Shown here in pieces: positions 5,979 through 10,061 of a DNA stretch of 64,000 nucleotides; position 1 is the first letter of the stretch; each line of letters begins with the position of its first letter. Made by a program: the position numbers and the translations under genes. Origin of the DNA: Klebsiella phage 05F01; sequence record LC483177.1; one strand, written 5' to 3'. The notes below the pieces were generated by a model. The model was not told where the DNA came from. It did not search any database and worked only from the letters and a program-made list of their open reading frames with translations.

Positions 5979-7556
5979 TTAATTAGCTAAATTTGAAACA
6001 GAAGTGTCTGTAGATGACACAGAAGTAGAAGTTCCGTTACCAGAAGTTCCTTGTGCCATTCCGTCACCAGACCTTGAAGTTGAGTTTGGTAAATAATTAT
6101 CACAGAACTCTTTAAATTTAACAGGGTCTGAAACTATATCTTCAGGAAGTCTATATTTCATATTTAGCATCTCAAAGAACTCATTGAGTATCTCTGGTGT
6201 TAGAGGAATTGCACCCGCTGCTACCACACGTTGGATAGCTGATGAGTTTGTATCAACATCAGGGTCACCAATATCTTGACTAGCAAATTTAGGTATGTCT
6301 GCATCATCAAGAGAGAATCCATTAATTCTTAAAAGTTGTGGTATGATTTGAGTATTAATCATCTCAATAATAATATTAACATCTCTCTCTATGTAATGAG
6401 AAAGTAATGTTTGTTTATTATCTGAAAGTGAGTAACTACCCCCTTCATTACCCATAATAAGAACACCAGCACCAAATCTATTAAATATATCCAGTTGTCT
6501 TTGCTTTATTAGGACATTAGTATCAAACTGCTTACCATTACCTTCAACACCTTGGAATGTCAATTCATATTGCTGCATACTCGTATTTTCATACAAGTCA
6601 GATGGCATCACCATATATTGCTGTTCACCTGCATGGAGGTTGGCAATATTTTGTTGTAATATTAAAAGAGATTGTGCTTCTTCTCCACCAGGGTCTAAAG
6701 CTGCCCTATTAAGAATAGTTGATGGAACTTTTAATACTGGCATACCACCTAAATCTTTAGAGACACCAACAACTTCATATTCCTGAATAAGACTTTTTTC
6801 TCTCCAGCTTCTATACACGGCTGCAAGAGGACTTTCACCTAATGGATTTCCTTCTGTAATGTTATTACCTACCAAGATCATTTTAGACATTGGGATGTTT
6901 TTAACACCAGATGATTGTGGTGAGAAAAATCTACTATTTAAAGATTTAACTATATTCTGATTAACAGATAATATTTCCCTTCCATCATCAGAAAAGACAA
7001 AAGGGTTAGTTATATCAAGTGTATCTTGTGGACGTGCTGCCAGCTTCTGTAATCTGTAGTATCCATAATAAGGACTAGATGGATTAGTATCTTGCTGATA
7101 AACTTTTTCTGCTAAAGCAAAACCGAATTGCTTATATGAAAGTAGAGACCTGATATACTGTCTCAGTGGTGCTTCCATATTTCTTAATGTGTAATCTACA
7201 AATTTTGCTGCTTTCTTTGATTTTGCAGATTTTGTGTTATAGTTGATTGTGAAATCAAAAAACGCTCTATCTACAAACGTGTATGTGGCATCTAATGCTG
7301 TTGCTACATCAGGGTCATAACCCATTTCTTTATATGTTCGGATACACTCTGGAAATCTTAGCTCATAATTTTGAAGAAAGTTAGTAAATAGCTGTATGGA
7401 GTTAAGACCTAATGTGCCTATCTCTTTAGAGATTACTAATCTGGCCTCTTGAGTGTCAACTGGAGCAGCGGGACTTGCCGCTTTACTAACATTCTTATTC
7501 CAGTATTCCGAGCGTTTAGTATACTTTCTTTTCAACGGCTCCTCCAGAATAAACAA
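5979..7556 (-). CDS. portal protein (525 aa)
   Basis: large ORF immediately downstream of terminase large subunit; size typical of portals. Confidence 0.65.
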   Translation of the reverse strand: MFILEEPLKRKYTKRSEYWNKNVSKAASPAAPVDTQEARLVISKEIGTLGLNSIQLFTNFLQNYELRFPECIRTYKEMGYDPDVATALDATYTFVDRAFFDFTINYNTKSAKSKKAAKFVDYTLRNMEAPLRQYIRSLLSYKQFGFALAEKVYQQDTNPSSPYYGYYRLQKLAARPQDTLDITNPFVFSDDGREILSVNQNIVKSLNSRFFSPQSSGVKNIPMSKMILVGNNITEGNPLGESPLAAVYRSWREKSLIQEYEVVGVSKDLGGMPVLKVPSTILNRAALDPGGEEAQSLLILQQNIANLHAGEQQYMVMPSDLYENTSMQQYELTFQGVEGNGKQFDTNVLIKQRQLDIFNRFGAGVLIMGNEGGSYSLSDNKQTLLSHYIERDVNIIIEMINTQIIPQLLRINGFSLDDADIPKFASQDIGDPDVDTNSSAIQRVVAAGAIPLTPEILNEFFEMLNMKYRLPEDIVSDPVKFKEFCDNYLPNSTSRSGDGMAQGTSGNGTSTSVSSTDTSVSNLAN

Positions 7557-7620
7557 AATGGGGGAATGTTAATCCCCCAATATGATTAATATTAACATGT
7601 ATATCTTTTTTTGTCAATAC

Positions 7621-9720
7621 CTACCGCTTATTGAACCTTGGGATTTTAGATAATGGCCTCTTATTTGTCAGTCCATAACTTGATGCCTTAGTTCTACTTG
7701 AAATAGCTGATGGTATTGCTACAGCAGTAAATATCTGCTCTTGTTGGATTGTATTAAAAGCAGATGCACAAGCATCTGGAATATCATCCTTAACAGTTGC
7801 TGTTGATCTCTCACCATTGAATACTTCAAGTTCACGATAGAAATGGTCTAATGTTTCTTGATTAGGGAATGAATCCTCTACTATATAAACAAAACCGTTT
7901 TGACATGCACTACTAAAAGGGGTGAACTTTTGTAGTTTTTTCTTATTGCCGGGCATTGCATCAGACTTCACAGCAAGTCCATTTGAAATAAGTTTTTTAG
8001 CAGACTCTTGATACTCTACAGCACCTGCTGCTGATGGATCTTTTGGTAACACTACCGTGATATTAATATTATGTTCTTCATTATCGTAAAGAGATTGTTT
8101 CAATATCATTGTATCCCTTTCTCCGGGTAGTCTTCTAAATCTTCCATAGATTTTAGACTTCTCATCTATAGAATCAAGAATATAGTCACCGAAAATATAG
8201 ATATTACCATTAGAATCTTTAGCCATTTTAATAGATACTGTATAGTCAGGGTATTTATATTTTTCAGTGGGGATAGATGCAGCTTTATCCCATGCCCTTA
8301 CATACTTCATGTTCTTTGGTATTTTATCATATGTGATTTTATTTAGCCATTCTCTTTGAAAATAGCTAGATGCTTGTTCACGTGCATACCAACAACCATC
8401 CAAAAGTCTTTCTCTGTTAACTTTTGTTTGTGCTTTAAGAGATGCAAGATACCCTGGATTGAGCCTAATAAGCGCCGGGTTATCAAATATTGTTCCACCT
8501 ATAAACATAAACGTCTTAGGTTTAATTTTAACCATCTCATCTGTGTTTGGATTATACTGTTCACAGAGATCAGGATATTTTTCTTCCAACTCTTCTGCTG
8601 AATCTGAGAAAACAGGTTCATTATTATTAATCAGAAAATATAATTGCTTTCCACACATCTCATCTGTTGGAAAACCTTTATCATCTAAATAAGGTATTAC
8701 CCACTGTAAAACCCAGCTATCAGCATCAGGGTTACATGTAGATAGGCAGAAGCTTTCTGTTTCTGATTCAGAACGTAAACGTCCTATTAGATAGAGAAAT
8801 TGGGTGATACTGAAATGTGTAAGTTCGTCAAATCCTACCATGGAGTACTGTGTACCTTGGTGGTTTGCCTCTGCTGTTGATTCAAGCTCAAGATGGTCAA
8901 ACTTTAATTTTCCACCAGTTGTAGCTTGAAACTCAATTTCCATCACAGTTTCTCTTACAATAGGTCTTAATGGAGCATATAATTTCTTGGCTTCTGTAAA
9001 TAATCCACCTGCACTTCTGTGTGCCTTAGTTGTTCTTCTAAAAAGAACTCCATCAAAAAGGGGGTCTTTGTGAGCAAATTTTAATGCTTTTAATAACAAT
9101 AATCTACTTTTACCACTATTACCTGTTACAAAGGTATGCCCACCTCTTCTTAAAATAAGATAAGATGAAGGAGTTTCAAAGCAATACTTATACCCATCTG
9201 TTGGAACTGTCTCAAATATTTTAAGGTATGTATTCTCTTTACCTAAGATATTGAATGGAATTCTCTTACCATAGTAAGTTTCTACATATCCTCTTAAAGG
9301 GTGTCCTGCCTGTTGAAGAGCGATAAGGTCACCTACAGCTATCTCAAAATGTTTTTTTGATTTTTTCTTTTTATAAAAGACAAATCTATGCTCCATACTA
9401 AGCTCTTGAAATATCCCTGAAGCATTCTCTATGCGATATAGATTATCTTTTGTCTCTATCTCATCAAAGTAAGGGGTAATCTTTTCTATTTTTTTATTAT
9501 CTGGATTATACTGATAGATATCCTCACCAGAATAATCTTTAATTTTTCTCCAACCAAATTCAGATAGATATTCAGTTTCAGCACTGACACAACCAGCAGC
9601 ACCTCCATAAATCATTACATCTGGCATACTATCCATTGCAATAGTTTGTTTTCCTGGCTGTGCTTCTATTTTAAATACTGTATTTTTTAAATCATTCTTT
9701 GCTTGCTTTCTAGGTGCCAC
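7621..9720 (-). CDS. terL: terminase large subunit, intein-containing (699 aa precursor; Walker A GAAG|intein|SGKS)
   Basis: P-loop GGAAG...SGKS reconstitutes GxxxxGKS once a 158-aa insert is removed; ATPase and nuclease-sized C-terminal regions; followed by portal gene. Confidence 0.85.
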   Translation of the reverse strand: MAPRKQAKNDLKNTVFKIEAQPGKQTIAMDSMPDVMIYGGAAGCVSAETEYLSEFGWRKIKDYSGEDIYQYNPDNKKIEKITPYFDEIETKDNLYRIENASGIFQELSMEHRFVFYKKKKSKKHFEIAVGDLIALQQAGHPLRGYVETYYGKRIPFNILGKENTYLKIFETVPTDGYKYCFETPSSYLILRRGGHTFVTGNSGKSRLLLLKALKFAHKDPLFDGVLFRRTTKAHRSAGGLFTEAKKLYAPLRPIVRETVMEIEFQATTGGKLKFDHLELESTAEANHQGTQYSMVGFDELTHFSITQFLYLIGRLRSESETESFCLSTCNPDADSWVLQWVIPYLDDKGFPTDEMCGKQLYFLINNNEPVFSDSAEELEEKYPDLCEQYNPNTDEMVKIKPKTFMFIGGTIFDNPALIRLNPGYLASLKAQTKVNRERLLDGCWYAREQASSYFQREWLNKITYDKIPKNMKYVRAWDKAASIPTEKYKYPDYTVSIKMAKDSNGNIYIFGDYILDSIDEKSKIYGRFRRLPGERDTMILKQSLYDNEEHNINITVVLPKDPSAAGAVEYQESAKKLISNGLAVKSDAMPGNKKKLQKFTPFSSACQNGFVYIVEDSFPNQETLDHFYRELEVFNGERSTATVKDDIPDACASAFNTIQQEQIFTAVAIPSAISSRTKASSYGLTNKRPLSKIPRFNKR
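9118..9591 (-). other. mini-intein (158 aa, no homing-endonuclease domain) inserted in terminase Walker A motif; starts Cys, ends Asn, +1 Ser
   Basis: translated: ...YGGAAG-CVSAETEYLS...GGHTFVTGN-SGKSRLLL...; extein junctions restore canonical P-loop. Confidence 0.7.
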
Positions 9721-9728
9721 ATAATCTC

Positions 9729-10061
9729 CTATTTACTTATAATGTTTTTATCTTTTAATAATTTTATGTAGTCTTGTAATGTTTTTAATCTGTTACGATC
9801 ATTTTCCCAAAGAGCATTATTCAATGTTTGATTTTTAACTACATCAGAAACACTTACACCATGTCTGATTTGTGACTCTGTATATAAAATTGGCGTTGAT
9901 ATTGTATCTAGATCAGACTGATCTGGGGACTTAATATCCTCTGTAGCTACAACTTTACATTGCTCAGTTACTATTGGGGAAACTTTCGTTGATGATGCGC
10001 AGCCCACTACTGTCAGACTTAAAGCAAGTAGAAATACCTTCAGAACTTTTTTCATAGTCAC
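9729..10061 (-). CDS. outer-membrane lipoprotein, putative o-spanin (signal peptide plus lipobox LTVVGC)
   Basis: N-terminal MKKVLKVFLLALSLTVVGCASS; overlaps 3' end of upstream TM/coiled-coil gene in another frame (Rz/Rz1-like architecture). Confidence 0.55.
   Translation of the reverse strand: MTMKKVLKVFLLALSLTVVGCASSTKVSPIVTEQCKVVATEDIKSPDQSDLDTISTPILYTESQIRHGVSVSDVVKNQTLNNALWENDRNRLKTLQDYIKLLKDKNIISK

Follow-up and report, generated by a model that had tools for sequence, protein, structure and literature searches.

Among phage inteins, those in large terminases are the most frequent, and insertion into nucleotide-binding P-loops is classic for such elements (PMC5050341; PMC2807308; bioRxiv 10.1101/2025.01.02.630785). 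In the mycobacteriophage TerL1-a and TerL1-b inteins, the Walker A motif of the large terminase (TerL) is split, and neither ATPase activity nor the terminase pentamer is expected before splicing (Kelley et al., 2016, PMC5050341). A comparable arrangement is found in Klebsiella phage 05F01 (record LC483177.1), from which a stretch of 64,000 nucleotides (the window) was analyzed: the 158-residue insert in the Walker A loop of its TerL is a genuine mini-intein, an element of a known kind. The two systems differ in host protein and site. The mycobacteriophage inteins reside in Terminase_1 proteins, whereas TerL of 05F01 belongs to Terminase_6. TerL1-a lies between the invariant Lys and Thr of the motif, with site b one residue off, while the 05F01 intein lies at G/SGKS (here and below the slash marks the interrupted bond; PMC5050341). 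A tblastn search with the 05F01 intein returned no mycobacteriophage match at E<=0.01.

The best match to the 05F01 intein in both sequence and structure is the AceL NrdHF split intein (PDB 6ZGQ; Hoffmann et al., 2020, PMC7891396). In this intein the WCT triplet takes the variant form 'MCT', and splicing depends on a first attack by the block-F Cys124 (PMC7891396). The two inteins share Ser at B:7, His at B:10, Arg at B:11, a hydrophobic residue other than Trp at B:12, Cys at F:4, Thr at G:5, Gly at G:6, Asn at G:7, and Ser at +1; both are without His at F:13 and G:6, are of similar size (146 vs. 158 aa), and are of probable phage origin. In contrast, AceL NrdHF begins with Ala1, which makes class 1 chemistry impossible, whereas the 05F01 intein has an invariant Cys1. 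AceL NrdHF is also split in nature, its halves being separated by a GIY-YIG gene, and interrupts the NrdF subunit of ribonucleotide reductase (RNR) at IRDE/S, while the 05F01 intein is contiguous and sits in a P-loop. Overall identity between the two is only about 17-19%.

Canonical class 3 (WCT) inteins, such as MP-Be DnaB, Msm DnaBi1, and MchDnaB1, share with the 05F01 intein Cys at F:4, Thr at G:5, Ser or Thr at +1, an association with phages, and a preference for the P-loops of ATPases, including terminases (PMC2807308, PMC5222942, PMC7664689). On the other hand, they have no required N-terminal nucleophile, carry Trp at B:12, and usually have His at G:6. They appear only as weaker Foldseek matches (6bs8, 6rix), and a profile of the 05F01 intein family, built from 19 TerL inserts at the same site, did not retrieve them from the PDB sequences at E<=10. 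Much closer are the TerL inteins of Stephanstirmvirinae coliphages (phAPEC8, phi92-like) and of Vibrio phages (e.g., PWH3a-P1), which are orthologous alleles at the identical bond, 71-74% and about 25-35% identical to the 05F01 intein, respectively. All have the form C...[TS]GN/SGKS, as in 05F01, and none is annotated as an intein in the records inspected.

According to the list of open reading frames (ORFs), terL of 05F01 encodes a 699-aa precursor from a GTG start codon (Table 1). The ORF matches PHROG 979 'terminase large subunit' (E=1.3e-198); Pfam Terminase_6N covers TerL residues 202-460 (E=2.2e-21), and weaker matches of the nuclease domain (Terminase_6C/psiM2_ORF9) fall on residues about 550-660. 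The C-extein is 67-70% identical to TerL of Justusliebigvirus/Phapecoctavirus phages. Translation of the minus strand from 9118 to 9591 gives 158 residues, CVSAETEYLS...GGHTFVTGN, which are preceded by ...VMIYGGAAG and followed by SGKSRLLLLKAL. An earlier reading of the DNA, made from the sequence alone, had proposed that a mini-intein splits the Walker A P-loop of TerL here; its coordinates and its 158-aa sequence are exact, and only the strand (minus) was left unstated. The proposal holds on four grounds: presence and absence of the insert among relatives, the junction residues, the Hint fold, and profile homology.

Insertion at a single peptide bond is evident from related terminases. A whole-ORF search of 5.8 billion proteins yielded 1,459 TerL relatives, and the best 120 were parsed for the state of Walker A. 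The motif is uninterrupted (GGAAGSGKS; G[GS]AGSGKS) in 63 of these 120 listed homologs, typically as IYGGAAGSGKSRLLL, while 37 carry an insert at the identical G/S bond; the other 20 are incomplete sequences or fit neither class. Counting the insert of 05F01 itself, all 38 inserts start with Cys and end with [TS]GN, and are followed by SGKS, a regularity that coincidence could not produce. By length they form two groups, mini-inteins of 146-159 aa and larger inserts of 246-328 aa. When the spliced TerL of 05F01 is aligned with 10 intein-less TerLs, there is no gap over the junction. A collinear conserved segment without the junction residues, which the sequence-only reading had named as the finding that would count against an intein, is the opposite of the pattern of 63 intact motifs and 38 C...GN/S inserts. 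Closely related terminases can differ in whether they carry the insert: the extein of one intein-bearing protein (P0025) is 87% identical to an intein-less TerL (P0064), and that of another (P0022) is 86% identical to P0060. The TerL insert thus shows the presence/absence polymorphism expected of a mobile element.

The structure of the insert is that of a splicing domain. An AlphaFold model computed from the family alignment has a mean predicted local distance difference test (pLDDT) score of 85.1 and an all-beta Hint topology. The best Foldseek match in the PDB is 6zgq (E=2e-7, template modeling (TM) score 0.61-0.64), and the top 50 PDB matches are exclusively inteins, Hedgehog domains, or bacterial intein-like (BIL) domains; the Hint fold that the sequence-only reading had anticipated is therefore the one modeled. 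At the sequence level, detection of this intein needs a family profile, as single-sequence searches are uninformative: phmmer with the single insert against the PDB sequences gives noise, with a WW-domain protein as the best match (E=0.039). The family profile, on the other hand, retrieves 6zgq (AceL NrdHF) from the PDB sequences at E=3.5e-12 over nearly its full length, and other inteins more weakly. An hhalign comparison of the family with AceL NrdHF reaches 96.8% probability in the N-terminal half. The C-terminal 30 residues, for their part, are matched by PHROG profiles of intein-containing PhoH and RNR families.

Several observations weigh against a splicing intein. The Pfam Intein_splicing model matches the insert only below its cut-off (E=0.019), and an NCBIfam scan of the TerL ORF gave no intein match. 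The class 1 residues Asp F:4, His F:13, and His G:6 are all absent. A degenerate, non-splicing Hint-like domain that stays in TerL, or a terL pseudogene, would account for the missing Asp and His residues and for the sub-threshold scores of the curated intein models. Such a reading is very improbable, however, as the P-loop would not survive a 158-aa domain between G and S of GxxxxGKS, and as Cys1, Asn158, Ser+1, and His B:10 are invariant over the 38 alleles, down to about 30% intein identity. The same atypical residues are also found in an intein that demonstrably splices: AceL NrdHF lacks the same 'missing' residues and yet splices to completion, with a half-life of about 4 min (PMC7891396).

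Selection and distribution in cultured phages point in the same direction. Between 05F01 and phAPEC8, the intein is 74.1% identical at the amino acid level, with a nonsynonymous divergence (dN) of 0.228, and the extein is 68.7% identical, with a dN of 0.274; dN values are compared here rather than dN/dS ratios, as synonymous sites are saturated. Constraint on the intein is thus as strong as that on the extein, and this purifying selection speaks against a domain that has ceased to splice. By tblastn, an insert 71-74% identical to that of 05F01 is present in terL of about 135 cultured Phapecoctavirus/Justusliebigvirus-like (phAPEC8/phi92-like, Stephanstirmvirinae) phages. phAPEC8 is cultured and viable, and its interrupted terL is the sole annotated terL, which again speaks against a pseudogene. 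A 158-aa domain within GxxxxGKS must abolish nucleotide binding if it is not removed, yet these phages are viable. Taken together, the essentiality of TerL, purifying selection, viable cultured phages with the same interrupted terL, and a splicing relative make it very probable that the insert splices. The terL gene of 05F01 and of the ~135 cultured phAPEC8/phi92-like therapeutic-candidate phages would accordingly be read as encoding a precursor, not the mature enzyme.

No intein annotation is present in the ~85 listed records of intein-carrying phages. In these records terL is annotated as 'terminase large subunit', 'hypothetical protein', 'terminase-like family protein', or 'large terminase with endonuclease' (e.g., OR525700.1 of vB-Eco-KMB37 and LC739533-39 of the phiWec phages). 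Some of the listed records are named as Campylobacter, Acinetobacter, Pseudomonas, or Serratia phages, and their allele is almost that of the E. coli phages. A megablast search with terL against 50,697 phage records gave no match, and 05F01 is thus without a close sequenced relative at the DNA level; it is a lower-GC relative of the Stephanstirmvirinae coliphages, with a TerL identity of only about 68-70%. As of a 2024 paper, inteins in coliphages had not been reported (PMC11162368), and literature searches on inteins in phAPEC8, phi92, or the genera concerned brought up no account of a TerL intein in Stephanstirmvirinae coliphages. TerL P-loop inteins, mini-inteins, and phage inteins with a penultimate Gly are already described. 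What appears to be undescribed in the literature searched is the Stephanstirmvirinae TerL intein, its exact G/SGKS bond, and the large family around AceL NrdHF that combines Cys1, Cys F:4, and TGN.

The residues that are fixed among the TerL inteins correspond to those of the splicing site. Cys1, His68 (B:10), Tyr136, Cys137 (block F), Gly157, Asn158, and Ser+1 are invariant, and they stay fixed though intein identity falls to about 28-35%; Thr156 (G:5) is Thr or Ser in all alleles. An S-x-x-H motif of block-B type, noticed from the letters alone about 65 residues into the insert, is indeed present as SMEH at intein residues 65-68; it fits the block-B pattern [TS]xxH, contains the invariant His68, and aligns with Ser65/His68 of AceL NrdHF. 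The alignment of block B extends over VSPNHRMIY of the latter (S65/H68/R69/M70), whose block-B residue roles have been shown by mutagenesis (PMC7891396). The Hint domain holds all the residues needed for N-terminal activation (Ser B:7, His B:10), resolution of the branch (Asn158), and ligation (Ser+1).

The penultimate residue was regarded in the sequence-only reading as a non-canonical feature worth attention. It is real, and it is not His; it is not, however, an oddity of one copy but a fixed trait of the family, already characterized in AceL NrdHF and in mycobacteriophage inteins. The penultimate His (G:6), common but not obligatory in inteins, is replaced by Gly157, which is fixed in 38 of 38 TerL alleles, and Gly is found at G:6 in nearly all of 155 family copies. 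The second half of block F (ETPSSYLILRR) likewise contains no His. In AceL NrdHF, a G145H substitution abolishes activity, as the His would clash with Arg69 (B:11); this Arg contacts the carbonyl of the C-terminal scissile bond and partly makes up for the missing His (PMC7891396). Mycobacteriophage inteins are often without a penultimate His, and the Bethlehem RDF intein, which has a penultimate Gly, splices faster than its own G-to-H mutant (PMC5050341). For protein engineering, inteins of this lineage that splice fast with a penultimate Gly have already attracted interest.

A splicing pathway can be proposed from these residues. terL would be translated as a 699-aa precursor whose Walker A motif is split into GAAG and SGKS and is therefore unable to bind ATP. 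The Hint domain would then fold and excise itself from the precursor in four steps: (i) a thioester would form at the Gly43-Cys44 bond; (ii) the N-extein would move to the side chain of Ser+1 (Ser202); (iii) cyclization of Asn158 would cut the C-terminal junction; and (iv) an O-to-N shift would create a Gly-Ser peptide bond. The predicted products are a 541-aa (~61 kDa) TerL with the P-loop GAAGSGKS and a free intein of ~18 kDa. The best guess for the initiator is Cys1 (class 1 chemistry), with Cys137 in the place of the usual Asp at F:4. A penultimate His would not be needed in this lineage, with Arg69 (B:11) perhaps compensating in part, as in the solved relative. As a whole, a genuine mini-intein that very probably splices, with initiation by Cys1 as the best guess, is the explanation in which we have high confidence. 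Two facts favor Cys1 as the initiator: nearly every member of a highly divergent family keeps it, and some copies have it together with Gly at F:4.

The sequence-only reading had named Cys1 as the nucleophile. The residue is present and invariant as stated, but it is no more than the probable initiator, since the equally invariant Cys137, together with Thr156, forms a class 3 signature. Three points stand against plain class 1 chemistry: conservation of Cys137 (F:4) and Thr156 (G:5) is as strong as that of Cys1; in the nearest characterized relative, the block-F Cys is an obligatory nucleophile (PMC7891396); and the family has members with Pro1, Ala1, or Lys1 together with Cys F:4. It is therefore possible, though clearly less probable than initiation by Cys1, that the same element splices by a class 3 or thioester-relay route, in which Cys137 would attack the Gly43 carbonyl or take the acyl group from Cys1, and a branched thioester at block F would pass it on to Ser+1. 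Cys1 could then be unnecessary, play an auxiliary part, or start a relay that runs through Cys137 to Ser+1.

The evidence on this route is divided. The closest homolog with a solved structure, AceL NrdHF, has been proven to be class 3: its C124A and C124S mutants are dead, and the thiol was modeled at 3.0 A from the scissile carbonyl (PMC7891396); Cys137 of 05F01 aligns with 6zgq residue 124, at which the solved structure carries the C124A mutation of the catalytic Cys. The 05F01 intein equals AceL NrdHF at S65, H68, R69, Cys F:4, and T-G-N/S, with a hydrophobic residue at B:12 in both (F vs. M). Ser or Thr at +1 is typical of class 3, and class 3 inteins typically reside in the P-loops of helicases and phage terminases (PMC2807308). 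Cys F:4 is, moreover, retained in the Pro1, Ala1, and Lys1 family members. Tori and Perler (2011) reportedly showed that WCT inteins with Ser1 or Cys1 splice by the class 3 route. An N-terminal nucleophile is 'not required' in class 3 (PMC5222942), and 3 of 37 WCT inteins have an N-terminal Ser or Cys (Tori et al., PMC2807308). Of the class 3 hallmarks, then, the 05F01 intein has Cys at F:4 (Cys137) and Thr at G:5 (Thr156). On the other hand, the Trp at B:12 of the WCT triplet is absent, with Phe70 in its place, and position 1 is occupied by the invariant Cys1, whereas the operational definition of class 3 given by Hoffmann et al. demands that there be no Cys at this position. The invariance of Cys1 in 38 TerL alleles and its presence in 148 of 155 family copies would be unexpected if it were dispensable, although these family frequencies are soft, as the ranking from which the copies were taken is biased to those containing Cys. 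The existence of copies with Cys1 and Gly F:4 further suggests that Cys1 alone can suffice in this scaffold. Initiation by Cys1 therefore stays the preferred reading, and the element offers a genetically tractable E. coli phage system in which to ask which of two active-site cysteines initiates, its nearest characterized relative being class 3.

Copies beyond the terminases place both cysteines in a wider family. An exhaustive HMMER search with the family profile against 1.84 billion representatives gave 10,442 proteins at E<=1e-3, of which 2,321 reached E<=1e-10, while a word-indexed protein search with the intein profile found 8 proteins only. Block positions were read from 155 intein copies (the best 150 representatives plus the TerLs). 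Cys1 occurs together with Cys F:4 in 148 of these 155, a proportion to be read with the caution that ranking by score favors copies matching both cysteines. Positions G:5, G:6, and G:7 are Thr/Ser, Gly, and Asn, respectively; the +1 residue is Ser, Cys, or Thr in decreasing frequency; and B:12 is V, F, I, L, or M, and almost never Trp. The copies are 25-35% identical in pairs. Most are at GxxxG/[SCT]GK[ST] P-loops, in TerL, PhoH, DnaB-like primase-helicases, RecD-like helicases, and clamp-loader subunits. Another site is GVDIG/CGM in RtcB, and in one protein (P0127) a family intein (C...FC...ITGN/S) splits an N6/N4 DNA methyltransferase at WLYG/SGFPKS, which shows that the family is not confined to P-loops yet targets G/SG sites. 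The family is thus large, mostly phage-borne, and homes into glycine-rich nucleotide-binding loops at G/[SCT]GK. Several proteins hold two to four inteins of the family.

All three nucleophile states exist on this one scaffold. Besides the copies with both cysteines, Cys F:4 is kept without Cys1 in P0182 (Pro1), P0155 (Ala1), and P0151 (Lys1), and at the NrdF site IRDE/S.H, which is also that of AceL NrdHF, two copies combine Cys1 with Gly at F:4 (the second inteins of P0151 and P0203). Beyer et al. argue that class 3 cannot evolve directly from class 1, as several simultaneous compensating changes would be needed (PMC7664689). We tentatively suggest that the copies represent an undescribed 'double-cysteine' family, with the signature Cys1, Cys F:4, Thr G:5, and Gly G:6, in which both cysteines might be used. 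If both are used, whether as redundant initiators or in a relay from Cys1 through Cys137 to Ser+1, this would make the family a natural stepping-stone from class 1 to class 3, and a second, independent origin of class 3 chemistry would follow. As an intermediate, a family in which both nucleophiles are mostly kept and one or the other has rarely been lost would make the origin of class 3 testable in an E. coli phage.

The placement of the intein in the catalytic ATPase motif had also been put forward, from the sequence alone, as a potential regulatory point. The first half of this idea stands: packaging needs prior splicing, because the P-loop is split in the precursor and no packaging ATPase can exist before splicing. 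The same argument has been made by Kelley et al. for assembly of the terminase pentamer (PMC5050341). The second half, conditional splicing that gates DNA packaging, is an attractive but unsupported speculation. Conditional splicing could serve as a packaging checkpoint if, for instance, an oxidized disulfide between the neighboring active-site residues Cys1 and Cys137, which is purely hypothetical, held TerL inactive until conditions became reducing. In favor of this reading are the inactive split P-loop and the invariance of both active-site cysteines. The Msm DnaBi1 intein reportedly senses redox state through a disulfide that involves its catalytic Cys. This class 3 intein is described as an oxidative-stress sensor (PMC6195587), and a role of phage inteins in tuning protein production has been argued for by Kelley et al. 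(PMC5050341). A checkpoint is nevertheless unlikely. The closest relative splices with a half-life of about 4 min over a broad range of pH and temperature and with negligible side reactions (PMC7891396); the family occurs in the P-loops of many unrelated ATPases, which fits homing to conserved DNA sites better than regulation of TerL; and closely related TerLs manage without the intein.

The history of the element can be read from what it has kept and lost. As the sequence-only reading had supposed from its size, the insert is a mini-intein without a homing endonuclease: its 158 residues are modeled as one Hint domain, and no homing-endonuclease family in the profile libraries matched it. Among the larger same-site TerL alleles (301-328 aa), one of the two tested has a sub-threshold match to LAGLIDADG_3 (E=0.012), and clear LAGLIDADG_3 matches come from family members in other host proteins. 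A free-standing homing endonuclease was looked for beside terL and none was found, the neighbors being spanin-like ORFs and the portal gene; a search for a second intein of the same family in the window was also negative. The region from 7000 to 10500 is AT-rich throughout (GC content 0.30-0.39), with 0.31-0.33 in the intein vs. 0.34-0.39 in the C-extein, and no sharp break in GC content, as a sign of recent acquisition, is seen at the intein borders. All listed TerL relatives of at least 68% identity carry the intein. Because of the absence of a sharp GC break and this uniform carriage, the data fit an old, endonuclease-less, vertically inherited copy; the intein would have lost a LAGLIDADG endonuclease and would now be passed on vertically in its phage clade.

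A lysine run, YKKKKSKKHF (intein residues 74-83, ~9343..9372 on the minus strand), lies between blocks B and F, where inteins usually carry the homing endonuclease. It is nearly invariant in the phAPEC8-type alleles, with single conservative changes in 3 of 10, and is absent from the Vibrio-type mini-inteins. The run is encoded by A5/A6/A7 homopolymers. It may be what is left of a DNA-binding patch, or no more than a tract prone to slippage. In one database protein (P0124), a frameshift breaks the sequence at exactly this run.

Table 1. Coordinates of terL, its exteins, and the mini-intein with its splicing blocks in the 64,000-nucleotide window of Klebsiella phage 05F01 (LC483177.1); residue roles are predicted.
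Feature	Coordinates	Strand	Basis
terL precursor (N-extein + intein + C-extein)	7621..9720	-	ORF list; Terminase_6N, PHROG 979
N-extein, TerL residues 1-43, ends ...IYGGAAG (Walker A first half)	9592..9720	-	Collinear with intein-less TerL N-termini up to GGAAG
Mini-intein, 158 aa, Hint splicing domain, TerL residues 44-201	9118..9591	-	Translation, AlphaFold, Foldseek, family profile
Cys1 (block A:1), position of the canonical class 1 N-terminal nucleophile, codon TGT	9589..9591	-	Invariant in 38 TerL inserts
Block B, G59-F72: GIFQELSMEHRFVF, Ser65 (B:7), His68 (B:10), Arg69 (B:11), Phe70 (B:12)	9376..9417	-	Alignment to AceL NrdHF
Cys137 (block F:4), position of the class 3 branch-point cysteine	9181..9183	-	Aligned to 6zgq residue 124
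Block G end and Ser+1: Thr156 (G:5), Gly157 (G:6, penultimate), Asn158 (G:7)	9115..9126	-	TerL allele comparison
Asn158 codon AAT	9118..9120	-	DNA
Ser+1 (Ser202) codon AGT	9115..9117	-	DNA
C-extein, TerL residues 202-699, begins SGKSRLLLLKAL (Walker A second half), rest of ATPase, nuclease domain, stop	7621..9117	-	Terminase_6N, Terminase_6C/psiM2_ORF9

The surroundings of terL resemble those in phAPEC8, in which the gene order is the same as in the window: tRNA genes, small ORFs, spanin, TerL, and portal. Upstream of the terL module of 05F01 are 13 tRNA genes (Phe, Leu x2, Pro, Cys, Gly, Thr, Gln, Asn, Tyr, Ser, Arg, and Met) at 12487..16073 on the minus strand. Directly upstream of terL, two overlapping ORFs (9729..10061 and 9964..10398, both on the minus strand) look like an o-spanin/i-spanin pair: one, of 110 aa, has a signal peptide with a lipobox-like ...LSLTVVGC, and the other, of 144 aa, has an N-terminal transmembrane segment and a coiled-coil-like tail. 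At the equivalent place in phAPEC8, an 'Rz-like spanin' is annotated.

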